Assembly: GCA_038064195.1 (NCBI GenBank)
Contig: JBBTTO010000002.1
Location: 269,356-333,355 of the forward strand
Length of the DNA stretch: 64,000 bases
Origin: Patescibacteria group bacterium
GTDB lineage: Bacteria > Patescibacteriota > Microgenomatia > Levybacterales > UBA12049
Reading direction: 5' to 3'
Numbering within the stretch: the stretch's first letter is position 1; every line of letters starts with the position of its first letter. Below, in pieces: positions 6,654-57,771 of this stretch. A program made the translations under genes and the position numbers. The notes under the pieces are model-generated. The model was not told the DNA's origin, did not search any database, and worked only from the letters and a program-made list of their open reading frames with translations.

Positions 6654-7518
6654 ACAAGAAGCAATTTTCAGAACTCTCCTCTATAGTGACCTCTTTAACT
6701 GTCCTTTACGTGAAGACGAGCTTTTTTATTATTTAAATACTAAGGAGAAAGTATTGCAAAAAGATATTAGTAAAATTGCCCTCCAAACACCAGGTGTCTA
6801 TAAATGGGAAAGCTGGTATTCGTTGAGGAGAAGTCATCAGGACATTCGAAAACGCCAAGAGAGGATGAGAATATCCCAAGCGAAAATTGCCCTCGCCCAA
6901 AGACTTATCAGGTGGATAACATGGATTCCTTCCCTGTTATTTGTCGGTATAAGCGGAAGTGTCGCAGCCGGGAACGCTCAGCTTAATGATGATATCGATT
7001 TTTTTGTTATTACCCAGAAAGGAAGTTTGTATACTACCCGTTTGTTATTGTTGCTTTTGCTTCAGATTCTTAGAAAGCGACGCAAGCCTCATGAGCAGGA
7101 GGCTAGGAACAAGATTTGCCTCAACATGCTTATTGATGAATCTTCTTTAGCCATACCTGAGAGTAAGCGTACTGTATATACTGCCAGAGAAATAGGTCAG
7201 CTTATGCCTTTATTTGAGCGCCGGGGAACCTATCAGCGCTTTCTGAAGGCCAATGCCTGGGCTAAATCATTTCTTCCTCATATTGGGCGTAAAGGAGATT
7301 GGATATCTTCCAAGGGTAAAGTTTCTCAGAGAAAGACCTTTTTCACTCTTGTGGAGCCACTTACGCGATTTATCGAAATTCGTTATATGAAGAAGCGTCA
7401 GACAGTCGAGCAGGTAAATACTCACTCCATTGCATTTCACCTTAATGATACTGCTGTACGAATTTTACGTCGATATGAGGCGAGACTAAAAACTCTTGAA
7501 TTAACTATGTCAAGGTAG
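6643..7518 (+). CDS. Pol-beta superfamily nucleotidyltransferase domain protein
   Basis: GISGSVAAGNAQLNDDIDFFVI fits the G[SG]x9-13Dh[DE]h NTase signature, with a later acidic LIDES. The internal ATG at 6643 was chosen because the 6577 start would overlap the SBP gene. Confidence 0.5.
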   Translation: MGSKQEAIFRTLLYSDLFNCPLREDELFYYLNTKEKVLQKDISKIALQTPGVYKWESWYSLRRSHQDIRKRQERMRISQAKIALAQRLIRWITWIPSLLFVGISGSVAAGNAQLNDDIDFFVITQKGSLYTTRLLLLLLLQILRKRRKPHEQEARNKICLNMLIDESSLAIPESKRTVYTAREIGQLMPLFERRGTYQRFLKANAWAKSFLPHIGRKGDWISSKGKVSQRKTFFTLVEPLTRFIEIRYMKKRQTVEQVNTHSIAFHLNDTAVRILRRYEARLKTLELTMSR

Positions 7519-19873: not shown

Positions 19874-19902
19874 TTGACAAAAAATAGCACTCTTGCTATC
19901 AT
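19874..19902 (+). promoter_or_regulatory. sigma70-like promoter of hrcA operon (TTGACA-17-TATCAT)
   Basis: TTGACA at 19874-19879, a 17-nt spacer, TATCAT at 19897-19902. It overlaps the CIRCE-like element. Confidence 0.5.
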
Positions 19903-19910
19903 ACTGCTAA
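19884..19910 (+). promoter_or_regulatory. CIRCE-like HrcA operator (imperfect)
   Basis: aTAGCACTC-N9-tACTGCTAA, compared with the consensus TTAGCACTC-N9-GAGTGCTAA. The left half matches 8/9 and the right half is imperfect. It lies immediately upstream of hrcA. Confidence 0.55.
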
Positions 19911-24545: not shown

Positions 24546-24607
24546 TAATTTTTCTGCTACTTTCTAATTGTATTTTTATTCTATTCTCCCTATACTTTTA
24601 TTAATAA

Positions 24608-24624
24608 GCACCGCTTAGCGGTGT
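24608..24624 (+). terminator. Short GC hairpin downstream of dnaJ / in leader of pilin-like gene
   Basis: gCACCGCttaGCGGTGt with a 6-bp stem, then tatttgtgtt. It lies 10 nt before the ATG at 24634. Confidence 0.35.
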
Positions 24625-24633
24625 ATTTGTGTT

Positions 24634-25047
24634 ATGAAAAATGTGCCTGCCCGCATATCCGGTTTTCGGAAAATAATCCAAGCAACTCTTCTTCTCGGGT
24701 TTGTGATTTTGTCTGTAGCTTCTCCCTATCAAGTTCAAGCTGACGCTCCTTCACCTTGTCCGCCGGATCAGGCCATAACAGAGGTTGGCTGTCTACCTAA
24801 AGACCCGATTCAATTCGTAAGCAGTTTTTATACAATCGGGCTGGGGCTTATCGGTGGTGTAGCGTTAATTTTTATAATCATCGGCGGCTATACGATTTTG
24901 ACCTCTCGTGGGAGCCCGACTCAAATTAATATCGGCAGAAGCTATATATTTTATGCAATTTTAGGTCTCCTCCTGGCAATTTTCGGTTATATCTTTATTG
25001 AGGTCTTTGCTATAGACATCTTGCATTTACCAGGCTTTAGTAATTAG
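24634..25047 (+). CDS. VirB2/TrbC-like two-helix pilin-type membrane protein (candidate)
   Basis: 137 aa. It has a long signal peptide ending ..VQA, then a Cys pair (CPPDQAITEVGC) and two hydrophobic helices separated by a short polar loop, which is the classical T4SS pilin architecture. The stop lies 2 nt before the next ATG. Confidence 0.45.
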   Translation: MKNVPARISGFRKIIQATLLLGFVILSVASPYQVQADAPSPCPPDQAITEVGCLPKDPIQFVSSFYTIGLGLIGGVALIFIIIGGYTILTSRGSPTQINIGRSYIFYAILGLLLAIFGYIFIEVFAIDILHLPGFSN

Positions 25048-25048
25048 T

Positions 25049-28000
25049 ATGAAAAAATTTATAGCTGGTTTAGTCTTCCTGGCAATTGTATGTTTGGCAG
25101 CGAGTTCTTCACCTATTGTTTTTGCGGCTGATCCAATTACTACAGGAGTAACCGGATTAGGCGTGGGAGCTGCCGCGACACTACCGGCCGACGGGTCGTG
25201 GATTACAGACCCTGAGGTAACTAAGGTTGGTAAGAACGCCGCCCGGGCAGGTATGTTACTCGATTGGACATTGCGGGACTATCAATGGTCTTTTGTTAAA
25301 AATGGAGATACCAATCCCTTAATTCCTTTTTGGTTGACGATGCAGCGAATTGTCTATGCACTCTTCCTTTTTGTCGTGCTGGTCACAGCTTTTATTTTAA
25401 TTGTCACAAGAGGCAGGAGCCTGTCAGCCAGACGTTTTCTTCCCCGCTTTTTCATGGTCGTTCTTCTGGTCACGTTTTCATTTTCGCTGGTTCAATTTCT
25501 CTATCAGATTATTGATATCTTCCAAGGGTTCTTCCTTAAAAATCCTCAGGGGAATATTATCTCCTCACGTGATCTTCTCTATGTCGGATTTGACTATCAA
25601 TCTTTTCAGGGGTTACGCGTATTCGGGCAGTCTTTTGATGAGTCAGCTTTAATCTCACTCCTTCTGGTCAAACTTACGTCATTTACGTACTACGTCATGG
25701 TCATACTGCTTATTTTCAGAAAAATCATTTTGTGGTTTTTTATCATTATTTCACCCGTTTTCCCGCTGCTGCTTCTTTTTTATCCTCTGCGTAATACTGC
25801 CAAAATTTGGGTGGGGGAATTCTTCCGTTGGCTGCTCTACGCTCCGCTTTTTGCAATTTTCCTGTCAGGACTTGTTAAGTTGTGGCAGACCAGCCTGCCT
25901 CTTCTTTTTAACTTTAGTAAGGTAAGTGATCCGAGTACTGTTGTTTATCCGACCGCTGTTAACATCCTGCTGGGTGGTCCGCAGCAGCATATTTCTCAGG
26001 TAAATTCGGTTAATCTCCCCGACACATTCGCGTTGTATGTAGTGGCACTCATTATGCTCTGGACAGTAATTATTTTGCCTTTTATTCTGCTGCAAATCTT
26101 TCTTGACTACTTTATGTCTGTAAATTATCGGGATAATCCACTCCTCAAACAAGTCTATACACTCATGAATAACAGGCCGCTTATTCCTCCGCCTCTTCCT
26201 CCGGGATCTCCCGCACCTGCCGGACAGGCCGGACTTGCGAGAACCTTACCGCTTGTAAGAAGGTTTGAAGGGCCTAGGACAACAGGTCTTATGCAGTCCA
26301 TTCCGACGAGTACAAGTATCTCACAGCAGCAACAAATTACTCGTCCGGTGACAACAACGATCAGTAACCAGACGCAAGTATCCCGTTTGACAAATCTATC
26401 TATCCCGACCATGCGGGATATTGCACGCTTTGAGAAAGAAAAATTAAGCAACCGATTGGCATCCCAACAGGAAATAGAGCGTGTTAAATCGACGTTACTC
26501 CAGATTGCTAATCCCCTGAGGACTTCGACTTCAAAAGAGCGTGAGCGATATCAAAGTGTGCGTGAGCGTCTTGTGATTGAGGGGCAAAAAGGCAATCAGA
26601 CAGCCACCAACATACTCAATGCGGCAACTACTTATAATACCTATCATTCAGTCTTTAAGCCAAGTCAGAGCAGTCAGTCAAGTCAACAGTTCATTCAAAA
26701 CCTGGCAAATCCCGAGAAAATCGTTGACAAGACAGAAAAAGAGAAGATTGTCCACATTCGTGAGCAGATACAGTCTGCAGCAACTACCGGCAATGAGCTG
26801 GCAAAAGTAGTACTCAATGCCATTACTCAGACCACGACGACCAGAGTTACAAGCCTGCAGGAGACTCTCAAGGAGCTTTCCCATCCTGAGAAAGTCGTTG
26901 ATGAAAAGCAAAGAGAACAATACACTTCACTTCGCGAGAAAATCAGTCAGGCCAGCACAGCAGGTAACCCGCTCGCACAGCTGGTAGTATCCTCACTTGA
27001 GAAATCAACCTCACCCGTTGAGGTAAAAATGATTCAAACAAAACTCCTTGAAGCACAGGCAGAGGGCAACCCCTTAGCAACAGAGATTCTGACAACAGTA
27101 ACGAGTAAAGAATCAACAAGTCAGGAGCAACTTAAAGAAGTTCAGACCAAATTAGAAGAAGCAAATAGAAAAGGAGATCCGTTAGCAGCTGTTTTGCTAC
27201 CTCTTCTCACCTCACAGAGCGTAAAGCAACAAGAAGCTCCTGTCTCGGCGGCTGCCAAACTCAAGACGGGTGCGTTCCCGGTCGTGAATCGTGTTCAGCA
27301 GGTCTCACTTGACGATTATGAAGCAGTAAAAAAGATGTGGAAAGAGAATTATCAGAATCTGGAAGTCCCCCAAGACATAACTGGACAAAAAACCCGTAAA
27401 CAATGGATCACCTCAGATATTGCAGATATAGAGCAGACAATCAGCCTGCTAACCTCATCAAATCCAACTGAGGTTGAAGAAGGCATGAAACAGGTCTCAG
27501 ATATTTTGCCCTTTCTGTTGATCGGAGGCTTTTCGCAAACCGAGATTATTGCTTATCTTAAAGCGAAGATGGAGGCGGGTAAGCAAGTTGCCGAAAGTAT
27601 CGGTTCCAGAGAGGAGGAAGAAGAGACTCTCCTCAATGCCGCACATGCTGCTAAAGCTGCCACATCACATATGACAACCAGTATGCAAGTAGACGAAGAA
27701 AGTTCGTCAAGCAGCTCAGTGTCTGAATCACCTACGATTACTAATAACTTTACGACTAATAATCATTATGCAACAACAGTTATACAGCCGGTGAGTTCCT
27801 CGACCGGTACGTCTCTTCTCCACTTAGCTCAGCTTCCGCTTATTACTATGCGGGATATTGTCCAATTTGAGACAACTCAGGGTTCGGCCAAAGAAACGAC
27901 TGAAGTAAAAAAGATTCAGGCGACACTCTCCGGGATATCAAATCCCGAGCAGCTGGCTTCAAAGGAGGAACGGGATCGTTTTGTCAAACTGCGACAAGAG

Positions 28001-29872
28001 ATCGTAGCGGAGAATCGCAAAGGTAATCCACTTGCCGAGATGATCCTGGCTGCATCACTCATGAGTGTCTCGGGTAAGAAGCCTAGTACACAACTGCTGC
28101 CCAAGGGTCGGGTCCCTGTTTTGCCTAAGCAGAACAGGCTTCAACAAGTCTCCCTTGAGGATTATGAAGTGGTCAAGAAAATGTGGGAAGACAATTACAG
28201 TTTACAATCTTCCCAAGCGGGCAAGACAAAGGAAGAATGGCTGAAGGATGATCTCAGATCGATAAGTGAGACTATTAATCTGCTTTCTTCAGAGAATGAG
28301 CAGGATATCTCCCTGGGGATGGAGAAAGTCGGTGAGATACTGCCTTTCCTGTTACTCGGAGGTTTTTCCAAGCAAGAGATTGTAGGCTATCTTAAAGCTA
28401 AAATGGAGGCCGGTAAAACAGTTTTGTCCCGTGTCGAGTCAGCAACTGAAGATAATGATCTCCAACAGGTTGTGACAGGCAAACAGGTTAAGACGGTCAA
28501 TGCTGAGGCAGTCGAGCTACCTACGCCTGAATCTGAGGACGCTACTTTTGAGACAAAAGATCTTTCTCAAGACAGGGGGAGTCTGCCTGCGCAAGTGAGA
28601 CTGCCGCTTCCTTCTCTTAAAGATATAGCCGTCCTTGAAACCCACCAAGCCTCAGGATCTCAATCACTGAATGAGTTACTCCAGACACTTAGCAATATCG
28701 TTTCTCCCGAGCGGATCAAAGATAAAGAGGAGAAGGAGAGGACTACTTTATTGCGGGAGTCTCTGGTCAAGCAAGCAAATAGTGGTGATGTGATTGCACA
28801 AACTATATTAAATGCAGCACGAGGGACGGGAAGCAGTGTCAAGCAGTCATCACGAGACGATGTCAGTCAATTTTTGCTTACTCTTCGTAGCGTTTTTGAT
28901 CCATCGCTGGTTGAAAATGTGACTACCCGTCAGGACTATACCACAACGCGGGATATGCTGGCCAAAGCAAGGCAAGCAGGTTCAGACATTGCAGTTACTC
29001 TTATGCGCCTGGTCGATACTGTTTCACATGAAGAAAATGAAGCAATTATGAATATGCTTCATTTGGTAGGCAATCCCGCACAAATCGTTGACGAGAAAGA
29101 AAGAGCAAGGTACACAGAATTTCGGGGAACACTTGAAAAAGAAGCATCCCGTAGTACATTGGCTGCGATGATACTGCAAGCGACAACAGGTGATATCTCA
29201 CCTGTGAGCGCGAATAAAATACGCGTCCAGCTTCTTGAAGCAAGTATGAAACAGGAGCCTCTTGCTACGAGTATTACTAATAATTTTATTACTCTCCCCC
29301 AGTCAACCATACTTGAAGCAAGAAGTACGTATAAAGAGGTGACTAAAAAAGGAAGCAAAGATCCGCTCGTCACAGCTCTTATCCGACTTCTCAATAAACA
29401 ACCGGTAAGTAGCAAAAATAGACGCACGCTTCAATTCCCCCAACAAAACAGAACACAAAAAACGTCAGTTGATGATTATGAAGCTATAAAAAAGCTGTGG
29501 TATGAAATGTACGTTCATGGTCAGGTACCAAAAGATAGTAGTGGGGAAGAACAGACACGGGAGGAGTGGGTCGCACTGGACAAGAAAGACGTTGAGGAAG
29601 TGATTAATTTATTGTCTTCTGATAACCTTGGTAACCAACAACTAGGCATGGAGCGGGTCGGGGACATCCTGCCTTTCCTTTTGATCGGAGGCTTTTCTCA
29701 AGCTGAGGTTATTGATTACTTGAAAGCCAAAAGGGAAGCAGCGGTGATCGCTCTCCAGACATTGACTGCCAGTCAACCCGAACTGGTTGATAGGCCTTCT
29801 GAAAAAAAAGGACCGGTATTGCAAAGCGCTCAGATACAACAATCTGATACGGTCTCAGACAAAGATGAATAA
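25049..29872 (+). CDS. Giant VirB6/TrbL-like polytopic membrane protein with 1250-aa nested-repeat C-terminal domain
   Basis: 1607 aa. A signal peptide is followed by 5-6 TM helices in the first ~350 aa. A hydrophilic region follows with three super-repeats, each containing ~40-aa NPExIVDxxE[KR]E..LRE..G[ND]PLA..IL modules and a ~95-aa [ST]V[SD]L[DE]DYE..KKMW...ILPFLLIGGFS..YLKAK domain. Confidence 0.5.
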   Translation: MKKFIAGLVFLAIVCLAASSSPIVFAADPITTGVTGLGVGAAATLPADGSWITDPEVTKVGKNAARAGMLLDWTLRDYQWSFVKNGDTNPLIPFWLTMQRIVYALFLFVVLVTAFILIVTRGRSLSARRFLPRFFMVVLLVTFSFSLVQFLYQIIDIFQGFFLKNPQGNIISSRDLLYVGFDYQSFQGLRVFGQSFDESALISLLLVKLTSFTYYVMVILLIFRKIILWFFIIISPVFPLLLLFYPLRNTAKIWVGEFFRWLLYAPLFAIFLSGLVKLWQTSLPLLFNFSKVSDPSTVVYPTAVNILLGGPQQHISQVNSVNLPDTFALYVVALIMLWTVIILPFILLQIFLDYFMSVNYRDNPLLKQVYTLMNNRPLIPPPLPPGSPAPAGQAGLARTLPLVRRFEGPRTTGLMQSIPTSTSISQQQQITRPVTTTISNQTQVSRLTNLSIPTMRDIARFEKEKLSNRLASQQEIERVKSTLLQIANPLRTSTSKERERYQSVRERLVIEGQKGNQTATNILNAATTYNTYHSVFKPSQSSQSSQQFIQNLANPEKIVDKTEKEKIVHIREQIQSAATTGNELAKVVLNAITQTTTTRVTSLQETLKELSHPEKVVDEKQREQYTSLREKISQASTAGNPLAQLVVSSLEKSTSPVEVKMIQTKLLEAQAEGNPLATEILTTVTSKESTSQEQLKEVQTKLEEANRKGDPLAAVLLPLLTSQSVKQQEAPVSAAAKLKTGAFPVVNRVQQVSLDDYEAVKKMWKENYQNLEVPQDITGQKTRKQWITSDIADIEQTISLLTSSNPTEVEEGMKQVSDILPFLLIGGFSQTEIIAYLKAKMEAGKQVAESIGSREEEEETLLNAAHAAKAATSHMTTSMQVDEESSSSSSVSESPTITNNFTTNNHYATTVIQPVSSSTGTSLLHLAQLPLITMRDIVQFETTQGSAKETTEVKKIQATLSGISNPEQLASKEERDRFVKLRQEIVAENRKGNPLAEMILAASLMSVSGKKPSTQLLPKGRVPVLPKQNRLQQVSLEDYEVVKKMWEDNYSLQSSQAGKTKEEWLKDDLRSISETINLLSSENEQDISLGMEKVGEILPFLLLGGFSKQEIVGYLKAKMEAGKTVLSRVESATEDNDLQQVVTGKQVKTVNAEAVELPTPESEDATFETKDLSQDRGSLPAQVRLPLPSLKDIAVLETHQASGSQSLNELLQTLSNIVSPERIKDKEEKERTTLLRESLVKQANSGDVIAQTILNAARGTGSSVKQSSRDDVSQFLLTLRSVFDPSLVENVTTRQDYTTTRDMLAKARQAGSDIAVTLMRLVDTVSHEENEAIMNMLHLVGNPAQIVDEKERARYTEFRGTLEKEASRSTLAAMILQATTGDISPVSANKIRVQLLEASMKQEPLATSITNNFITLPQSTILEARSTYKEVTKKGSKDPLVTALIRLLNKQPVSSKNRRTLQFPQQNRTQKTSVDDYEAIKKLWYEMYVHGQVPKDSSGEEQTREEWVALDKKDVEEVINLLSSDNLGNQQLGMERVGDILPFLLIGGFSQAEVIDYLKAKREAAVIALQTLTASQPELVDRPSEKKGPVLQSAQIQQSDTVSDKDE
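26390..29760 (+). repeat. In-frame coding super-repeats (3 units of ~1.2, 0.6 and 1.16 kb) within giant protein gene
   Basis: Repeated ~95-aa domains lie at ~27300-27590, 28148-28425 and 29465-29745. Nucleotide blocks are conserved (e.g. gattatgaagc/tggt..aaaatgtgg; ctgcctttcctgtt..tcggaggcttttc). The ~40-aa helical modules recur 8 or more times. Confidence 0.7.
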
Positions 29873-29947: not shown

Positions 29948-32734
29948 ATGTTAGGAAATTTATTCAGCTCCCATAAAGACGAGAGGTCAATGCCGACTGA
30001 TCAAGCTCAACCTATGAACGATGATTCAACAGCAACTAATTCTCCGTTCCCACAGGATACAAATACCTCCTCACGAATGGATCCTGTCTTTCGTCAAAAT
30101 ATGTCTGCTCTCTCGCATTTAGACGCGAGGACTACGCAAGTGCTTCATCATGCTCAGGATGAGACAAAAAAGATCAGACAGGCACAAATCGAACCGGAGC
30201 AGCTACTCCTCGGGCTCCTCTACGACGAGGAGGTATTTAAGCTCTTTGAAGGATTTAATGTGGATGTCGCAAAGCTTGCTAAGGAGATTCAGAGTAAAGA
30301 ACAACTCGGTAACAGCACGACGCAGCCAACACTCAGCAACGCGACAACTGAGATCTTTGAGGCAGCATATAGAGATTGTAGAAATAGAAATGTCAGCTTC
30401 ATTTCACCTGAGGATCTTGTCGTCGCTCTCTTTGGTAGTGGCGGAAGGCTCGCGCAAAATCTATCTGAGAAAGGTATTAAGAAAGAGGCAATTAGTGAAA
30501 AACTCTCCAAGTCTGCGACTTATACAACCGGTAAGAAATCTATCCTTCAGGAATACGGCATTGATCTCACTGAGGAAGCCAAAGCAGGTAAACTGGATCC
30601 GATTGCCGGCAGGGACAAAGAAATTGATCGACTTGTTCACATACTTCTCCGTCGAACAAAAAACAATCCGATTATCATCGGTGAGGCAGGAGTAGGTAAG
30701 ACAGCAATTGTTGAAGGACTTGCTGAAGCAATTGCATCAGGGAGTGTTCCCGGGGGTCTCAATGACAAAAAGATTTTTCAGCTCGATCTAGCAGCTCTTG
30801 TCGCGGGCGCAAGTCATCGGGGGGAATTTGAAGAACGCCTTAAGGGTGTTATTAATGAAACAATAGCCTCACAAGGTCAGATCATACTTTTTATCGATGA
30901 GATCCATACATTGATCGGTGCAGGAGACACCGACGGGACGCTTGATGCTTCCAATATTATAAAGCCTCACTTAGCAAGGGGGCATATGCAAATCATCGGT
31001 ACTACAACAACTGCTGAATATCGTAAGCATTTTGAGAAGGATAAAGCCTTTGAGCGGCGTTTTCAGCCAATCTTAGCTGATGAGCCGAGTGAAGAGGCAG
31101 CAGTCGAGATGCTTAAAGTGCTTCGTCCTAAGTATGAAAAATTCCACAGTGTCACCATCCCTGATGATACATTGGTAGCTGCGGTTAAGTTATCAAAGAA
31201 ATATATCGGTGAGCGCTACCTTCCCGACAAAGCTGTGGATCTTATTGATGAAGCTGCAGCTGATGTGAAATTAGGCAGGACTGTAGTTAAAGAACAAAAA
31301 TCAGAGAATAATGATCAAAAAAAAGATAGCAATCTGGACGGTAACGGAATATCTGACTCACAGCAATCATCTTCACGTGCTACCGGTAATGAGGTTGTGA
31401 AATCAGATATAGAGAAAGTGGTCAGCAACTGGACAGGGATTCCCATCACCAAATTGACTGAGGATGAAAGTCAAAAACTCTTAAAACTTGAGGATAAGAT
31501 CCATGAGCGGCTTATTGATCAGGAAGAAGCTGTGACTGCTGTTGCTGAGGCAGTGAGGCGGGGAAGAATCGGCTTGGCTCCTGCCAACAGACCGATTGCT
31601 TCATTTGTTTTCTTAGGGCCGACAGGGGTAGGTAAAACTGAGTTGGCAAAATCTTTAGCTGAGTTACTTTTCGGTCGTGATGATGCTCTTATCAGACTTG
31701 ATATGAGTGAGTATATGGAAAAACATGAAGTAGCTAAGCTCATCGGTGCACCTCCCGGGTATGTAGGATATGAGGAAGGTGGTCAGTTGACTGAGGCAGT
31801 TCGGGCTAAGCCTTACTCAATTGTCCTCCTTGATGAAGTCGAGAAAGCGCATCCTGATGTCTTTAATATCTTACTTCAGCTCCTTGAGGACGGTCGTCTG
31901 ACTGACAATAAAGGCAATACGATTTCTTTTAAAAATACGATTGTTATTTGTACATCAAATATCGGTAGTGCTTTAATCCAACAACAATTAAGCGAGAAGG
32001 ATACAGGAGCAGCAACTACGCAGGAAGCTTTCAATGAGCAATTTGCTGAGCTTGCAGGCATGGTGACGACTGAACTGCGAAAATTCTTCCGACCTGAACT
32101 TCTTAATCGCTTTGATGATGTGGTCATATTTAAGCCGCTTCGCAAAGCTGATATGAGTAAAATTGCTAAGTTAGGGATTGCCAAGACAGCCAAACTTTTG
32201 GAAGAACAGGGGTATCATGTCCAGACGACAGACGGAGCGCTCGCAGAGTTGGCAAAAGAGGGGTACGATCCTGTCTATGGCGCGAGACCTCTTCGCCGCC
32301 TCATCCAGACAGCAATCGAAAACCAAATTGCCATGCTCTTAATTGCCAAACAATTTGTCCCTGGGGACACTATCGTTATTGATTATGACGCTGCAAAAGG
32401 GGCTTTTGCTTTCAGTAAGGGGAGCGGACAAAGTTTGGAAGGGACCGCGTCAAACGCGGCTGGCGCAAAGGGGACAAATGGGAGTGAAGCGGAAGCTGTT
32501 TCAGACGGGATGAATTCAAGCGACGATGCTACCCCTCAGTCTCCCGTTGCCGGAGCTGGGGAAGCGATGGCGCTTCCTGAGGAGACAAATGAGACACAAG
32601 GATCAAATGGGGCTCAACAGTTTGCCACACCTGATTTCAGTCCACCCTTTATGAAAACTGATGATACACAAACGAACGGTAATATGAATGCAGCCTCAAA
32701 CGGTATGGCCTCATCCTCAACTGCGACAAATTAG
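29948..32734 (+). CDS. ClpC/ClpA-like double-AAA+ Clp ATPase (both modules intact) with low-complexity C-terminal tail
   Basis: Clp_N repeats; D1 Walker A GEAGVGKT and Walker B FIDEIH; D2 GPTGVGKT / LLDEVEKAH; a short middle region with no long ClpB M-domain. The C-terminal ~110 aa are Ser/Ala/Gly/Asn-rich. The start codon is uncertain (several in-frame ATGs). Confidence 0.8.
32444..32482 (+). repeat. 39-nt element shared with dnaK 3' end (copy 2, inside clpC-like tail)
   Basis: ACCGCGTCAAACGCGGCTGGCGCAAAGGGGACAAATGGG, 35/39 identical to the dnaK copy and in the same reading frame. It encodes [13 protein letters not shown]. Confidence 0.7.
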
Positions 32735-32938: not shown

Positions 32939-33271
32939 ATGACTGCCTACCTTTTCTTGCCTATCTATTTTTTGGAGTTTTGGTTTGGTCAGGCTCCTTT
33001 ACGTCTTATCAGCCACTTTATAAAGATAAATCAGGCTTTTTTCCAGTTTTTCTCGGTGCCTTTACTTTTACGGACATTTTTCAGGCCAGCAAAGAACGAA
33101 TACAGAAAAGGTTTAATCGGTTTTTCAATCGGGATCGGCATTTTTTTGAAAAGTTGTGTTATTCTTACGGCTTTACTCCTATTTATCCCATTACTCCTGA
33201 GTGAAGTTATCCTGTTTTGTGGATTTTTGACCTTTCCGCTTATTACGTTAGCAGTCTTGCTTTGGAATTAA
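32939..33271 (+). CDS. Hypothetical small polytopic membrane protein
   Basis: 110 aa with 3-4 TM helices. The stop is 2 nt before the ATG of the membrane-anchored Clp paralog. Confidence 0.4.
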   Translation: MTAYLFLPIYFLEFWFGQAPLRLISHFIKINQAFFQFFSVPLLLRTFFRPAKNEYRKGLIGFSIGIGIFLKSCVILTALLLFIPLLLSEVILFCGFLTFPLITLAVLLWN

Positions 33272-33273
33272 CT

Positions 33274-35685
33274 ATGGATTATCATCTTTTAGCTTTTTAC
33301 AGTTTTTATAGGGCTTCGGGAGTTCGTCTTCTTCGCGCATTTGTTGCGAGTGGACTTTGCCTACTCATCGTCATTGGTATACTCGGGAGATTTTCTCCTT
33401 CATTTCCGCTTTTTCTTCTCAATATTCAAATCATGGTGGAAATTTTCTATCGCTACTATGTCTCAACCAGACAATCGACAAAGACAATTCAGGAAGTAGA
33501 TGAGTCAAATGTACTTCACGCAGTAACACTTCCTGCTATGGCAACACTCAGACAGAGTCGAACAAGTGCCGAGACGTTAAAGCGGCTTTTAACTTTTCCT
33601 CAGGTTGAATTTTTTCTCGCCCGATCAGGTATTAGCAGAAATGAATTGCCAATAAGTGAGATGGGAAATGCAGTTCTCCCGCAATTTGCTTACAAATTAG
33701 CTAAGGAATTGGGCGGTAAATATGTGACCACTATGGATCTTATGGCTGCCTATATATTACTTGAGGAAGAGAGAGCCCATTTACTTGTGAAGAAGAATCT
33801 GCAGGAAAAGGACATTTTGCAGATATTACGTTGGGCAAGATCAGCATATCCCGAGGAAGAACGACCCCGGTCTTTTGAAATAACAGTTGGCGGTGGAGGA
33901 ATTGGAGAATGGTTGGCAGTAGGTTGGACACCCGAGACGGCAGAATTTACTCGCAATTTTACCTATGAGATAACAAGTGATGATGTATCAATTGTCGGTC
34001 GTGAGGAAGAATATGAAAGACTGAAAGAAGAATTATTAAAGCTGGAGAATAATAACGTTGTTCTTATCGGAGAAGCAGGGGTCGGGAAAGAACAGCTGGT
34101 AAGAAAGCTGGCAATTGATTGTTATAAAAATGCTCTTGATCATGCTTTAGGTTATAAAACAATACTGGAGCTATTGGTCGGATCACTACTTGCAGGAGCG
34201 ACCTCTCAGGGAGAGCTTGAAGAACGGGTTAAGGCAATTATTGATGAGATATCTCATGCCGGTAATATTATCCTTTATATTCCCGAGTTCCAGGATATGA
34301 TCGGCGGTAGTAGCTTCTCACTTGATCTTTCAGGGGCACTTGCTCCCTATATGAAAGACGGTCAACTTCCGGTTATTGCCACCATGACTGAGGGGAACTA
34401 TAAAACCTATTTTGAGAAGAGTTCACTTCACGAACTCTTCTCACCCATTACTCTTAATGAGCCCACCCCTCAGCAGGCGGAAATAATGGTGATGGAAAAA
34501 ATAAGTGAGATTGAGAAAAACCAAAATTCGATTGTAACCTATGCTGCCCTTAAGATAGCTACTGAGTATGCCGGAAGATATACTCAAAACCTGTCACTTC
34601 CCGGGAGCGCGATTGAACTATTAGCTGATGCTATAAGTTCCTTACATGATACTAAAGACGCCGGTTTTTATGATAAAACACAAAAGCGTTTGCTGACAGA
34701 TACACTCGTCCTCAAAACAATTGAAGGAAGGACAAAGATAGCCTTATCTGAGCCCTCAGACAGCGAAAAAACATTATTACTGCATTTAGAAGATAGGCTC
34801 CATCAATCAATTATCGGACAGGATGAAGCCATCACTGTCATAGCTGAGGCTATGCGACGTCTCCGTTCAGGGGTTGAATCTGTGAACAGGCCAATTTCGT
34901 TTCTTTTTTTGGGACCGACAGGAGTCGGTAAGACAGAGACTGCCAAAACACTTTCCAAAGTCTACTTTGGCGGTGAGCAAAATATGATCAGACTCGACAT
35001 GAGTGAATATGCTGAACTAGATGGTCAAAAGCGTCTTTTGGGTGCACTTCCCGGGCAGGGGGAAGAACGAGGTGAGTTGACAGAAAAAGTTCGTGATCAT
35101 CCTTATTCATTGATATTGCTTGATGAATTTGAGAAAGCTCATCCTTCTATTTTGAGCTTGTTTCTTCAAATCCTTGATGACGGGCGAATCACCGATAACA
35201 AAGGCCGTACTATCTCATTTATAAATACAATTATTATCGCTACCTCCAATGCAGGATCTGAATATATTCGTGAGGCAGTAGAGAATGGCAAAGCAAGTAC
35301 CCCTACTTTTACCAAAGAGCTGTTAACGTACTTGCAGGAGCAAAATATTTTCAAACCGGAGTTACTCAACCGTTTTGACGGAGTCGTCACATTCCATCCT
35401 TTGACAGAACCTGAGATTGAAAAAGTGACCGCGATACTTCTTCGGGATCTGGCAGAAAAGATGCAGGAGAAGAATATTTCTCTTACCTATGCAAACAGTG
35501 TTTTCAAAAAAATTGCTCATGAGGCATATAATAAAGAGTTCGGTGCCCGTCCGATCAGGAGATACTTACAGGGGACGATAGAAGAACTTCTCGCGCAAGG
35601 TCTACTACAGAACAGTATTCACCATGGTGATCAAGTAACAGTTGACGTTGATAATAACAATAACTTTGTAATTGAGGGGAAATAA
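33274..35685 (+). CDS. Membrane-anchored Clp-family double-AAA+ ATPase with degenerate first AAA module
   Basis: Two N-terminal TM helices and a Clp_N-like domain. D1 Walker A is GEAGVGKE (Thr replaced by Glu) and Walker B is ILYIPEFQ (DE replaced by PE). D2 is intact ([12 protein letters not shown]; LLDEFEKAH; sensor region). The start was set at the ATG after the upstream ORF's stop. Confidence 0.7.
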   Translation: MDYHLLAFYSFYRASGVRLLRAFVASGLCLLIVIGILGRFSPSFPLFLLNIQIMVEIFYRYYVSTRQSTKTIQEVDESNVLHAVTLPAMATLRQSRTSAETLKRLLTFPQVEFFLARSGISRNELPISEMGNAVLPQFAYKLAKELGGKYVTTMDLMAAYILLEEERAHLLVKKNLQEKDILQILRWARSAYPEEERPRSFEITVGGGGIGEWLAVGWTPETAEFTRNFTYEITSDDVSIVGREEEYERLKEELLKLENNNVVLIGEAGVGKEQLVRKLAIDCYKNALDHALGYKTILELLVGSLLAGATSQGELEERVKAIIDEISHAGNIILYIPEFQDMIGGSSFSLDLSGALAPYMKDGQLPVIATMTEGNYKTYFEKSSLHELFSPITLNEPTPQQAEIMVMEKISEIEKNQNSIVTYAALKIATEYAGRYTQNLSLPGSAIELLADAISSLHDTKDAGFYDKTQKRLLTDTLVLKTIEGRTKIALSEPSDSEKTLLLHLEDRLHQSIIGQDEAITVIAEAMRRLRSGVESVNRPISFLFLGPTGVGKTETAKTLSKVYFGGEQNMIRLDMSEYAELDGQKRLLGALPGQGEERGELTEKVRDHPYSLILLDEFEKAHPSILSLFLQILDDGRITDNKGRTISFINTIIIATSNAGSEYIREAVENGKASTPTFTKELLTYLQEQNIFKPELLNRFDGVVTFHPLTEPEIEKVTAILLRDLAEKMQEKNISLTYANSVFKKIAHEAYNKEFGARPIRRYLQGTIEELLAQGLLQNSIHHGDQVTVDVDNNNNFVIEGK

Positions 35686-54621: not shown

Positions 54622-55356
54622 TTAGTTACCGGTTGGCCTTACAATCCGTGCTTTGATAAGCAACCTCTTCCAGGTAGTACCCGGAGGTGTACATGTAACT
54701 AATGTCAGATAATTATCATCGTAATTTTGTTCGAAAACTGTCGTATCTAAGGGACTTGTGATCGTGATAGCGTACACTTTGTAGGTATATTTGAGATGAT
54801 CCACTGTTAACTCAACCTCATCGCCTACCTCCATAGTATGAGCATAAGCAAATATCGTACGATAGTCTCTTTCTTTGTAAAGTTGAGGAAGTGTCGAATG
54901 TCCGAAAATCACCGCGTTGCCTTTGCTCGGCGGTACGGCAGTACCCCCATACTGGACCAGATGAGTCGATAAGTCGTTATCAATCGTTGAGACTTCAGCA
55001 TCAATAATTTTTAATCGGGGGATTGTGATTGCGTAATGAGTAACCGCTACATCAGTATGTGCTTGCTGGATACTGGGGTACCAGTTTTTGGCGTTAGTGT
55101 AATCTACGCCGGTGAGTGAATCAGTCGTGGCCTGGAGAAGATCCCGGAATGAGGATTCATTGAGCATACTTGTCTTAGGGATAGGTGCTGCTATATTAGC
55201 TGAGGCAAAGACCGGCCTAAGATAGATTTGAAAGGCAAGGAGAGGGAACGCGAAGTACGCTACCATCACGAAGCCTATAGCACACATGATAAGTCCAAGC
55301 AACCGGAAATACTTCCGAGCCGAACGGTTATGTCTTTTAGTATAGATTTTACTCAT
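54622..55356 (-). CDS. Sortase family transpeptidase
   Basis: N-terminal TM, catalytic His (AVIFGHS), the TLVTCTP Cys motif and a downstream Arg. The start was set at MSKIYTK. Confidence 0.75.
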   Translation of the reverse strand: MSKIYTKRHNRSARKYFRLLGLIMCAIGFVMVAYFAFPLLAFQIYLRPVFASANIAAPIPKTSMLNESSFRDLLQATTDSLTGVDYTNAKNWYPSIQQAHTDVAVTHYAITIPRLKIIDAEVSTIDNDLSTHLVQYGGTAVPPSKGNAVIFGHSTLPQLYKERDYRTIFAYAHTMEVGDEVELTVDHLKYTYKVYAITITSPLDTTVFEQNYDDNYLTLVTCTPPGTTWKRLLIKARIVRPTGN

Positions 55357-57703
55357 TGGTTTCCAGGACGATAGTGATATTCCTGGCAAAGCGCGGAAGA
55401 AGTGAGGGGAGGAAAGGAATACGGGGCGAGAGAACAATATCTGCACTTGTCACCTGCGGTATGGTCTTTAAGTAATCCTCTGCGTCTGTGAAGGATTTAC
55501 CGACAAGGCTTTCGACAAGAGTGTCTTTTTCAAGTTTGGGCAATAGTCCTGCTTTCATCACTAATGTGGCTGAGGCATCGTTATTTTTGCCCGGTTTTAT
55601 ATCAGTAAGTTCTGCCTGAATGCCTTTATCAGAGATAGCTAAGTCCTGATCATATTTGCCGTTAAGAGCTCCTTTGGCAATTTCATTAAGATCTGACGTG
55701 TCATATTCGATTGTCGTAAAGACGACAGTCCCTTTTATCGTCACTTTTTTGGCTTCTTCTCCTACATCCTTATCAATCGATTTTTTGCTGATCGTGACAC
55801 TCGTAAAGCCCGGGATAATAGTTTGAGTCGAGTCAGCTTTCTCTTTCAGTGCATCGCGTGCCTTATCCTGAAGATCTTTTGGGAGATTGGTGGTGAGTGT
55901 GTCGATATCTTTTTTGGCAACGACTGTAACTGTTTTTTTCGTACCGCCTGAGAATGCACTGTCATTTTTACCCGCCACGCCACTTACGCCCGTAACAGTA
56001 AATTTGGTGTTTGAAGGTAAATTGGATTCGGTTCCGATAGCTTTGGCTGTCACGCCTACCTGTGTAGTTCCTGGTTTGGTACCTGAGAAAATATCCCCTG
56101 ATGCAGATGCGATAATTGCCTCTTTATCTGTTGTAAAATCAAGATTATTAGATGAGGTGAGTACAGTTCCTGCAGGGACTGTGCGTTTGCCATCACTGTT
56201 GTTATAAAGAGTAATTGTTCCTTTGGCTTTGTCGCCAACATCTTTTTTACCGGTAGCATCAGTTGATGCGCTACCGTCGAGTGAAGTCTCGACTTCTTTA
56301 GCTGCCAGAATTTTTTGTGAGAGATCATTGGAAGAATCGGTACGAAGCGTAATCTCAGTTGACTCATCCAGGTCTTTGGTCTGCATATGCAGTGTGACTG
56401 TGGCTTTGAGTGAGTAAAGATAAAAGGCTCCCGCTCCGAGTATGATGATAATGATCAGCGGAATAATGACGAGCCATTTATTAAAACTCATGCCTGCAGT
56501 TTTTTTGAGGGGATTAAGCGATCCGATTACTGACATGACTGATCCTAGGATAGCACTAAATTTGGAATCTCCGGTCTTTTCCTCAGCATTTTCCTCCTGT
56601 CGGACATGAGTAAAGTTATCTATACGGGGAGTATGCGGTGTGTGATGGCTAAAGGAGGCTGTTGCTTCCTCAGTGTTTTTAGTAAGAATGGGGCCGGATT
56701 TTGAAGTTGAGGGAACCGATGAGATATCTTTACCCATCACAAAACCGAAATTGTCTCCATCCCTGGTAATCTCTGCTTCGTCATTTTCTGCCTTCGTAGC
56801 TTTATTATCCTCGCTTTTCTCTCCGTTAGCTTTTTCATCTAAGTCTTTACTCTCTTTTTTTGTCGGATGTTTCCCCCCCTCCGGAACTGATGATGATTTT
56901 TCTTCGTCACCTTCAAGCGTGACGACTTTAATATCGCCAAGCTCCCTTAGTACTGAAAAGCCCATTTGTTCGGCTGCGCCGTAGACCATAGCTTTGTTGT
57001 CAAATCCTTCGGGCAAGACTGAGACTTGGGGTACATGCAGGAAGGGAATACTTTTACTCCAGTGGTGCGCGATAAATTCCTGAGCCTCTTTGTCGACACT
57101 TCCGCCGTTAAAAAGAATAAGGCGTGAAGGCAGGACATCGATTGAGAAATGGTGGAGCAGCCGGTCAACTGTCTTTGGCAGTGATTCTTCGATCGGACTG
57201 CTGTATGTCTCAAGTATTTTCCCGGCGCGGAAGAGGCTGAGGGTGACCTCAGTCTTGCCGAGTTCTGCCAGGATGGCTGAGAGGGGAGCGCCCTCTTCTT
57301 CAGTCAATAAGTGAGAGATTGCCTCACTGATGACCATAAAGCCGATCGGCTCCAGGGAAAGTGAATCACAAATCTTTTTGAGCTTAGAGAGATAGTCTTT
57401 TTTGATTTTTTTCTCTTCAACCCAGCTTTCTTTGACGCCGAAGACTGTTTTTTCAGTCTCAATATTAGGCGGAAGACTGTTCTCAGCTTTACTGATTGTT
57501 TTATCTAGCGTATCGAGTAACTCGTCTAAATCGATTTCCTCAAGTGGAGTTGAAAACGCAGTCTCGTTTTGTCCGACAATTTCGAGCTTGCCCCCTCCTT
57601 CTTTAAGAATCACAGCTGCAGCCTTATCATCTCTCAGGAGGAGAGCTAAATAGTAATTAGACGGACTCTTTTTGCTGAAAAGTGAGGGTACTGGCAGCTT
57701 CAT
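55349..57703 (-). CDS. PilM/FtsA-like actin-fold N-domain fused to TM and large extracellular Thr/Lys-rich domain
   Basis: The N-terminus (LPVPSLFSKKSPSNYYLALLLRDDKAAAVILKEGGGKLEIVG) resembles the PilM/FtsA start. A Ser/Lys-rich linker, a single TM (LVIIPLIIIIILGAGAFYLY) and a ~400-aa extracellular region follow. The stop overlaps the sortase start. Confidence 0.4.
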   Translation of the reverse strand: MKLPVPSLFSKKSPSNYYLALLLRDDKAAAVILKEGGGKLEIVGQNETAFSTPLEEIDLDELLDTLDKTISKAENSLPPNIETEKTVFGVKESWVEEKKIKKDYLSKLKKICDSLSLEPIGFMVISEAISHLLTEEEGAPLSAILAELGKTEVTLSLFRAGKILETYSSPIEESLPKTVDRLLHHFSIDVLPSRLILFNGGSVDKEAQEFIAHHWSKSIPFLHVPQVSVLPEGFDNKAMVYGAAEQMGFSVLRELGDIKVVTLEGDEEKSSSVPEGGKHPTKKESKDLDEKANGEKSEDNKATKAENDEAEITRDGDNFGFVMGKDISSVPSTSKSGPILTKNTEEATASFSHHTPHTPRIDNFTHVRQEENAEEKTGDSKFSAILGSVMSVIGSLNPLKKTAGMSFNKWLVIIPLIIIIILGAGAFYLYSLKATVTLHMQTKDLDESTEITLRTDSSNDLSQKILAAKEVETSLDGSASTDATGKKDVGDKAKGTITLYNNSDGKRTVPAGTVLTSSNNLDFTTDKEAIIASASGDIFSGTKPGTTQVGVTAKAIGTESNLPSNTKFTVTGVSGVAGKNDSAFSGGTKKTVTVVAKKDIDTLTTNLPKDLQDKARDALKEKADSTQTIIPGFTSVTISKKSIDKDVGEEAKKVTIKGTVVFTTIEYDTSDLNEIAKGALNGKYDQDLAISDKGIQAELTDIKPGKNNDASATLVMKAGLLPKLEKDTLVESLVGKSFTDAEDYLKTIPQVTSADIVLSPRIPFLPSLLPRFARNITIVLETNE

Positions 57704-57771
57704 AATATTTGCATAGTGCAAAGCGCGTAGCGCAGAGCGAAAGACCACGCTTTGCTCTTTGCGCTTAGCGA

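Follow-up and report, generated by a model that had tools for sequence, protein, structure and literature searches.

A candidate extended VirB6-like protein with nested helical repeat units, encoded beside a pilin-like gene among the heat-shock genes of a Patescibacterium

What kind of protein is encoded by an uninterrupted open reading frame (ORF) of 1607 amino acids (aa), located at 25049-29872 on the plus strand of a 64,000-nucleotide (nt) stretch of DNA from the Patescibacteria group bacterium assembly GCA_038064195.1 (contig JBBTTO010000002.1), is the question raised by this locus. The whole stretch is called the window, its numbering is used for all positions and aa numbers refer to the encoded protein. 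The window is a chromosomal segment of a small-genome bacterium and carries housekeeping genes encoding class-I lysyl-tRNA synthetase, methionyl- and alanyl-tRNA synthetases, a short initiation factor IF-2 of 483 aa, NusA, polynucleotide phosphorylase, RNase J, FtsK and RpoB. An earlier sequence-only reading took the gene product for a giant surface protein, a description that is not established and that overlooked a VirB6/TrbL-like domain and the pairing with a VirB2-like pilin gene. Because of these two features, the protein, designated VirB6ext, would belong to the known category of extended VirB6 proteins and is, judged from its sequence, fairly likely to be an extended VirB6/TrbL-like subunit of a type IV secretion system (T4SS) pilus of a Levybacteria-type Patescibacterium, made together with the VirB2-like pilin.

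The VirB6/TrbL-like domain and its pilin partner

The protein begins with a signal peptide (aa 1-26, ending in ...PIVFA/AD; 25049-25126, plus strand), recognised by a hydrophobic N-terminus followed by an AxA-like site and kept across the family, and continues into a divergent VirB6/TrbL-like polytopic domain (aa 27-355; 25127-26113, plus strand), which is 85% identical to that of the homologous locus L005 and was assigned by a TrbL match and hydropathy. The polytopic nature of this N-terminal domain, already pointed out in the sequence-only reading, was borne out by hydropathy, which reveals, beyond the signal peptide, six hydrophobic segments designated H1 (95-120), H2 (134-157), H3 (200-223), H4 (227-247), H5 (258-280) and H6 (326-355), an arrangement kept in 67 homologues. 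A conserved outside loop of this domain reads WxxDPEVTxVGKNAAR.... Hydropathy detects no hydrophobic segment in the window protein beyond aa 359, and the C-terminal region of 1,252 residues is hydrophilic. By definition, an extended VirB6 protein has at least five hydrophobic helices and, in its central or C-proximal part, at least one large hydrophilic domain (PMC12857230), and both of these features are found here.

Relatives were gathered through the end domain (CTD) that closes each repeat unit, using a GTDB scan with one genome per species, in which at least 103 genomes encode a CTD and from which 80 loci were fetched, together with an exhaustive HMMER search, because a word-indexed protein search had returned only fragments of at most 389 aa. 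Statements on architecture refer to 67 complete proteins, scans of the N-terminal domain to 61 members and counts of gene order to 64 loci. Against the Pfam TrbL profile (PF04610), the N-terminal domain encoded in the window reaches 19.8-22.1 bits (E between 1.5e-4 and 7e-4), with aa 111-281 aligned to positions 5-182 of the 215 in the profile. Matches to TrbL at E<=0.01 are obtained with 40 of the 61 orthologous domains (best 8e-6), and no other family recurs. Several results weigh against this assignment: the TrbL match lies under the Pfam gathering score of 25.9 bits in every member, a PDB profile search with the 61 N-terminal domains gave nothing below E 0.16 and retrieved no VirB6 chain, and no VirB4, VirD4, VirB3 or VirB8 gene is found within ~10 kb, either in the window or in related loci. 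VirB6 homologues have been described as scarce in Microgenomatia, 'suggesting extreme sequence divergence' (PMC12102498), with which a sub-threshold TrbL match fits. Also, a large share of the VirB2-like pilin genes and VirB6 homologues of Patescibacteria are encoded away from virB4 (PMC12102498). The window family is a good candidate for the missing VirB6 of Microgenomatia.

The pilin gene (24634-25047, plus strand) ends 1 nt upstream of the virB6ext start codon. Its product, as read from the sequence, is a protein of 137 aa with a signal peptide, two conserved Cys residues and two transmembrane (TM) helices, and matches PF18895 T4SS_pilin with a sub-threshold E of 7e-4 and the NCBIfam Mbov_0395 pilin-like family with an E of 0.006. 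Small size, a signal peptide, two TM helices and the profile match are together the attributes of a T4SS pilin, and among orthologues of this gene 57 of 61 match PF18895 (best 2.5e-8). Of 67 loci that encode a complete protein, 64 contain a pilin-like ORF whose end lies beside the virB6 start, at a median gap of 4 nt. Gram-positive T4SSs likewise have VirB2-like genes close to virB6, and VirB2 has been modelled as polymerising on a VirB6 pentamer (bioRxiv 10.64898/2025.12.18.695078; PMC12857230). Alternatively, the two genes could specify a non-T4SS envelope complex of the heat-shock regulon, for example one acting in membrane protein quality control, with profile matches that reflect generic hydrophobic similarity. 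This would agree with the sub-threshold scores of both window matches, the lack of any other T4SS gene within ~10 kb and the constant linkage to chaperone genes. Such a complex is nevertheless quite improbable, since TrbL and T4SS_pilin are independent profiles that match adjacent genes across ~60 orthologues with no competing family recurring, and since many such genes of Patescibacteria lie away from virB4, as mentioned above.

Long ORFs similar to the pilin (about 240-460 aa) are also present on the opposite (minus) strand just upstream of hrcA in L035, L041, L044 and L064, and may represent pilin-domain fusion proteins adjoining the operon. An 816-aa neighbour in L002, considered as a VirB6 paralogue, was rejected, as it is an unrelated secreted HExxH-type protein.

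Nested organisation and history of the repeat units

The hydrophilic region starts with a Pro-rich and then Ser/Thr/Gln-rich linker (aa 356-443; 26114-26377, plus strand), followed by three super-repeats, each composed of short modules and an end domain. This nested architecture, the central claim of the sequence-only reading, is real, as confirmed by self-BLASTP and by three hidden Markov models (HMMs) named Head, module and CTD, built from the window protein and its relatives. Segment-wise self-BLASTP places three CTDs of ~110 aa at aa ~731-844, 1017-1126 and 1452-1569, whose pairs within the protein are 50-52% identical (E 1e-31 to 5e-36), with ILPFLLxGGFSxxExxxYLKAK as the invariant CTD signature. 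Repeats in the module regions (aa 450-720, 928-1015 and 1184-1450) are weaker, with 26-39% identity and E down to 4e-14. The 31-aa module HMM, with the consensus PTEREKYTKLKEKLVKESQKGNPLATSILS, describes a helical hairpin with ...KGNPLAxxIL and scores five times in unit 1, once in unit 2 and three times in unit 3, where about two further degenerate modules are recognised by eye. The Head HMM, with the IPTMRDIARYE-like consensus ILRLANLSIPTMRDIARYETS, has one match per unit, at aa 444-467, 923-946 and 1181-1202. Regular expressions initially given for these segments were roughly right, except that the second head reads LPLITMRDI, with I at the position of the pattern's P. The order in the window protein is H-mmmmm-C / H-m-C / H-mmm-C.

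As delimited by HMMs and self-BLASTP, unit 1 (aa 444-862; 26378-27634, plus strand) comprises the Head (444-467), five 31-aa hairpin modules (494-717) and CTD1 (742-862), and is joined by an acidic, Ser/Thr-rich, low-complexity linker (27635-27814, plus strand; 32% identity to L005) to unit 2 (aa 923-1140; 27815-28468, plus strand), the minimal unit, with a Head, a single module (971-1001) and CTD2 (1022-1140). Unit 3 (aa 1181-1580; 28589-29788, plus strand) has a Head, the three scored and about two degenerate modules, and CTD3 (1461-1580), and the gene ends with a short acidic C-terminal tail and the stop codon (29789-29872, plus strand). Structure prediction of one super-repeat with AlphaFold2 (unit 2, 66 aligned sequences) gave a confident, all-helical model with a mean predicted local distance difference test score (pLDDT) of 83, consisting of a short Head helix, a three-helix module (pLDDT >90), a ~28-residue disordered linker and a four-to-five-helix CTD (pLDDT ~95), and the CTD modelled alone reached a pLDDT of 87 with a predicted template modelling score of 0.78.

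The view that neither repeat type belongs to a family that can be named has withstood profile and structure searches. Pfam scans of each super-repeat and of one CTD alone at E<=10 returned noise only, as did the whole protein when compared with NCBIfam at E<=1, with no repeat family; a PDB sequence-profile search with the CTD profile gave nothing below E 0.16, and Foldseek comparison of the unit and CTD models with the PDB gave no significant match (best E 0.9, best template modelling (TM) score 0.38). A likeness to alpha-solenoids of the HEAT/ARM/PBS-lyase type lies in the ~31-residue helix-turn-helix hairpins with a G(N/D)PLAxxIL turn in the window family. Besides this, a 27-residue CTD segment, INLLSSxNxxxVxxGMxxVxxILP, bears a faint likeness to designed armadillo repeats (E 0.16), and the alpha-solenoid proteins TOG, PUF and SF3b are among the insignificant Foldseek matches (E 1.5-4.5) of the unit and CTD models. 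However, no Pfam model of HEAT, ARM or TPR type matches at E<=10 and no structural match has an E below 0.9 or a TM score above 0.4, so that membership in the HEAT/ARM/TPR families is unsupported and the likeness is generic. The Head-hairpin-CTD appendage consists of two undescribed domain types in strict order: the C-terminal 1,250 hydrophilic residues form a lineage-specific appendage, whose fixed unit comprises a Head, a hairpin rod of variable length and a compact CTD knob of four to five helices.

The sequence-only reading also proposed that the repeats retain short, highly conserved nucleotide blocks with a potential for recombinational variation in length or sequence, a view that corresponds to a surface adhesin or antigen encoded by a contingency locus. 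The variation in CTD copy number from 1 to 5 between species, the presence of assembly gaps that break two homologous loci inside the repeat region, and the strain-dependent variation of the C-terminal repeats of Anaplasma VirB6-3 and VirB6-4 (PMC3556328) are in line with such a locus. At the DNA level, however, CTD copies share only 51-56% nucleotide identity, with identical residues using the same codon in only 40-50%, and the longest exact runs common to unit pairs are 13, 17 and 11 nt as compared to 9-12 nt in codon-shuffled controls, so that the proposed conserved blocks hardly exceed what chance would give; the positions of these runs coincide with the invariant MRDI and LIGGFS motifs. 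Tandem Repeats Finder detected no array in the repeat region, and there is no repeat long enough for efficient homologous recombination. Furthermore, the nearest relatives of CTD1 are the first CTDs of L003, L004, L005 and L007 (73-79% identity), those of CTD3 are the last CTDs of the same four loci (59-63%), and CTD2 has its sole positional orthologue in copy 2 of 3 of L005 (59%). Because each window copy has a positional orthologue in other species, the unit duplications are old, and younger duplications have occurred in other lineages, with copies 1 and 2 being 80% identical in L051 and 72% in L064. Therefore, occasional whole-unit duplication over species-level time, and not ongoing recombination, changes the copy number. 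Few parts of the protein are as well conserved as the CTD, where diversifying selection would have the reverse effect, and L083, the sole independent assembly found, also contains the window's junction between units. Taken together, a contingency locus is highly improbable.

Conservation declines stepwise among parts of the protein, as identity to L005 amounts to 85% in the TM domain, 79% in Head1, 75% in CTD1, 58-59% in CTD2 and CTD3, 34-48% in the modules and ~30% in the linkers. The membrane-proximal unit 1 is the constrained unit and the best conserved of the three. Collapse or chimerism of the assembly as the source of the repeats was ruled out, since the ORF is continuous and the order is retained in 67 of 67 homologues, and L083, an independent Logan contig, reproduces the unit 1-unit 2 junction, matching window positions 26742-28073 (from unit 1 into unit 2, with the linker covered) with 0 mismatches and 5 insertions or deletions. 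Two related loci have N-gaps in the repeat region, which indicates that such repeats trouble some assemblies: N runs lie at 9733-9832 of L001 and 9885-9894 of L002, and annotation has cut these genes into separate short proteins. Fragments of this kind make up most of the CTD-bearing 'proteins' in databases.

When counted in 83 sequences (the window and 82 loci), one CTD per ORF is present in ~60, two in 18 and three in five, namely the window, L005, L043, L051 and L064. All 67 complete proteins follow the order (H m{1-11} C) x 1-3, with one unit in 50, two in 13 and three in four, and complete single-unit proteins typically have 720-850 aa. The exhaustive HMMER search of 1.84 billion cluster representatives retrieved 343 proteins with a CTD at E<=1e-3, having up to five copies each; a cluster look-up with ten full-length relatives found them named by no source, and other CTD-protein matches are annotated as 'hypothetical protein'. 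Loci with informative titles are mostly from Candidatus Levybacteria/Levyibacteriota or 'Patescibacteria group', with single Gottesmanbacteria and Parcubacteria titles. The CTD family is restricted to Levybacteria-type and related Patescibacteria, to which nearly all named carriers belong. Many records of metagenome-assembled genomes with a typically Patescibacterial locus are titled 'uncultured Gammaproteobacteria bacterium', which looks like a placeholder or mislabel; such titles are read as placeholders of the submitters because the gene content is identical. A mobile-element origin is unsupported, as tblastn searches with the N-terminal domain against plasmids and with the repeats against phages gave no match.

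Among distant members, P0123 (2283 aa) and P0090 (3266 aa) carry, between Head and CTD, long arrays of a ~35-aa repeat (IAEKTGVSxEKVxxVL) with weak matches to several helix-turn-helix (HTH) and winged-helix Pfam models. This array is a third repeat type, missing from the window protein, and P0090 has an additional N-terminal region preceding the VirB6-like domain.

Membrane topology and heat-shock gene context

On which side of the membrane the appendage is located was addressed by the positive-inside rule, using family-wide charge counts for 67 homologues. The mature N-terminus (L0, 71 aa; K/R 4.3, D/E 7.4) is assigned to the outside, the H1-H2 loop (L1, 13 aa; K/R 3.9, D/E 0) to the inside, the H2-H3 loop (L2, 45 aa; K/R 3.9, D/E 5.6) to the outside and the H3-H4 loop (L3, 3 aa; K/R 2, D/E 0) to the inside, and the H5-H6 loop (L5, 47 aa; K/R 2.0, D/E 3.1) is K/R-poor, with the 55 aa after H6 (K/R 5.5, D/E 1.6) being net positive. 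These counts give no decisive side for the appendage, and H5 is weakly hydrophobic. With six true TM helices the appendage would lie outside; with H5 not spanning the membrane, and hence five TM helices after the signal peptide, it would be cytoplasmic. In that case the positive segment after H6 and the K/R-poor H5-H6 loop favour a cytoplasmic C-terminus and count against an external appendage. The classical topology of VirB6 of Agrobacterium tumefaciens, attributed to Jakubowski et al. 2004, is likewise said to place the C-terminus in the cytoplasm. In the R388 structure, only two N-proximal helices are in the membrane and the bulk of VirB6 is outside (PMC12857230), and a topology of this type would leave the C-terminus outside. 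The Pro-rich and Ser/Thr/Gln-rich linkers also look like wall-spanning segments. By analogy with the R388-type topology and with proposals for other extended VirB6 proteins, the appendage would be located on the outer face, for which the probability is slightly better than even, and that of a cytoplasmic location falls a little short of even. Surface exposure, as assumed in the sequence-only reading, is consequently plausible but not established, since the charge bias and the two published VirB6 topologies conflict.

The pilin-virB6ext pair is embedded in a string of heat-shock genes. The order in the window is a CIRCE-like (controlling inverted repeat of chaperone expression) operator/promoter (19874-19910), hrcA, grpE, dnaK, orf123, dnaJ, pilin, virB6ext, clpB, orf110 and a clpB-like gene, and the pair lies within hrcA-grpE-dnaK-(dnaJ)-pilin-virB6ext-clpB on the same strand in 58 of 64 loci; the gaps are short, measuring 85 nt (dnaK/J-pilin), 4 nt (pilin-virB6) and 50 nt (virB6-clpB) at the median. 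The position of dnaJ is variable among related loci and the pilin-virB6-clpB adjacency is constant. In L002 and L082, the pair adjoins groES-groEL instead, and in L082 the pilin genes are closely preceded by clpB. The inverted repeat of the CIRCE-like HrcA operator at the operon promoter (19884-19910, plus strand; ATAGCACTC-N9-ATACTGCTAA) has three mismatches to TTAGCACTC-N9-GAGTGCTAA and overlaps the best sigma-70-like promoter, TTGACA-17-TATCAT. Because of this overlap, the start annotated for hrcA, a TTG at 19874, probably lies too far upstream. CIRCE-like elements with 2-3 mismatches precede hrcA in 35 related loci, and one is found upstream of groES in L002 (10461). Based on synteny and short gaps, the expression of the pair is probably tied to this HrcA/CIRCE heat-shock operon.

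The gap between dnaJ and the pilin gene (24590-24633) contains a conserved TATACTTTT, a GC-rich hairpin (24608-24624, plus strand) 10 nt upstream of the pilin ATG, and then a T-run right before this ATG. Compensatory substitutions are present in the stem in L003, L004 and L005, where the equivalent gaps are at about 7190-7232, 7455-7504 and 7350-7394, respectively. This element could be an internal promoter (with a possible -10 box) and a 5'-untranslated-region hairpin or attenuator, or else the dnaJ terminator; an Rfam scan of the whole window gave no match, this hairpin included.

That the pair is found almost universally between dnaK/dnaJ and clpB constitutes an unexplained link between secretion or pilus genes and heat shock, and is the most surprising feature of this family. 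It may represent synteny inherited in one lineage, hitch-hiking on an operon with strong expression, or a genuine tie to chaperones. If the tie is genuine, the appendage could be a cytoplasmic chaperone-coupled scaffold, whose units provide docking sites at the channel for DnaK/GrpE/DnaJ, ClpB, the VirB4 ATPase or unfolded substrates, making up a stress-regulated, chaperone-fed export module. Consistent with such a scaffold are the location of the pair within the string of chaperone genes with its short gaps, the second chaperone context in L002 and L082 (clpB...pilins-virB6ext-groES-groEL), the CIRCE-like operators upstream of both hrcA and groES, the net positive segment after H6 along with the cytoplasmic C-terminus reported for A. 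tumefaciens, and the HTH/HeH-like repeat arrays at the equivalent place in distant relatives. The high conservation of the CTD can be added to these, as it would suit an interface with an intracellular partner and is unusual for a surface element in contact with a host. The loci, however, all come from one lineage, so that synteny may be inherited and not functional; ClpB and DnaK look like ordinary housekeeping copies; in the R388 structure most of VirB6, its C-terminus therefore included, lies outside the membrane (PMC12857230); the Pro-rich and Ser/Thr-rich linkers have a composition usual in segments that span a wall or are extracellular; and no known chaperone-binding motif was found. On balance, a chaperone-coupled scaffold is rather unlikely. 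Its more specific form, in which Head-hairpin-CTD units serve as landing pads in the cytoplasm, delivering DnaK/ClpB-processed (unfolded) proteins, or else the disaggregase, to a minimal conduit of VirB2 and VirB6, is improbable, although, if true, it would amount to a stress-induced, chaperone-powered export or pilus module in ultrasmall bacteria, parallel to ClpV in type VI secretion. The analogy with ClpV, a ClpB paralogue dedicated to a secretion machine, bears on the landing pads only and lies in a ClpB-type AAA+ gene located directly 3' of a secretion gene. Unlike ClpV, the window ClpB possesses all of the canonical domains and is grouped with the dnaK operon like an ordinary heat-shock gene.

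Downstream of virB6ext, 29948-32734 encodes this canonical ClpB of 928 aa with Clp_N, followed by a 110-aa ORF without a family and by an 822-aa ClpB paralogue (32939-35685) lacking Clp_N and having a weak first AAA domain; the pair of orf110 and the second ClpB is kept in many related loci. Elsewhere in the window (54622-57748, minus strand), a 799-aa ORF has a weak match to Baseplate_J-like/GlxA beta-barrel and its end overlaps a sortase gene (274 aa); these genes may encode a sortase and its substrate surface protein.

Proposed role and comparison with known systems

For the preferred assignment as an extended VirB6 subunit, a mechanism can be proposed in which the N-terminal domain, by analogy with R388 TrwI and pCF10 PrgH, would serve as a membrane-anchored platform that recruits and polymerises the pilin. 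The ancestral and commonest protein has a single unit, and the three units of the window protein go back to ancient duplication of the whole unit. Since unit 1 is nearly as conserved as the membrane domain and the later units have diverged, the CTD is regarded as a putative binding knob for a conserved partner, held off by the hairpin rod, and additional units would lengthen the reach or supply more, diverging sites for binding. The VirB2-VirB6 pairs of R388 (TrwL/TrwI) and pCF10 (PrgF/PrgH) resemble the window pair in having a small pilin gene beside virB6 and in the topology of signal peptide, outside segment, TM helix, short inside loop, TM helix and outside segment. They differ in that their VirB6 has about 300 aa without an appendage and is encoded with VirB4 and other T4SS genes.

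Closest in overall plan are the extended VirB6 proteins of Rickettsiales (the Rickettsia RvhB6 paralogues, and VirB6-3 and VirB6-4 of Anaplasma phagocytophilum), which combine a polytopic VirB6 domain with a very large, repeat-bearing hydrophilic C-terminal extension, differ in repeat number by lineage and have been proposed to expose the extension on the surface (PMC3556328, PMC2653234, PMC12857230). The Anaplasma repeats, however, are near-identical tandem DNA and strain-variable, whereas the window units are old, diverged (~50% aa and 51-56% nt identity) and structured as Head-hairpins-CTD. The extensions in Rickettsiales also have no sequence similarity to that of the window protein, whose host is a monoderm bacterium of the candidate phyla radiation with the gene in a chaperone operon and not in a vir locus. 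VirB6 homologues of the MPF_FA type, from Gram-positive conjugative elements, comprise 700-900 aa with additional unstructured domains (PMC12857230), as compared to ~720-850 aa in the common single-unit members of the window family, and likewise come from monoderms and have an N-terminal VirB6 domain with an extra C-terminal region. Their extensions have been described as largely unstructured (PMC12857230), whereas those of the window family are predicted to be folded and helical (pLDDT 87-95) with an invariant motif. The window family is also encoded on the chromosome instead of a conjugative element, with no match among plasmids or phages. TcpH of pCW3 and ConG of ICEBs1 are examples of the MPF_FA type.

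The role of the extra domains in extended VirB6 proteins is acknowledged as an open question, being 'not yet known' (PMC12857230), and a T4SS with its pilin array is essential to the epibiotic life of one tested Patescibacterium (PMC12857230), because of which a conserved appendage on a pilus platform could bear on host engagement. The window family offers a cleanly defined, foldable appendage unit and a natural series of 1-5 copies for probing the role of such appendages.

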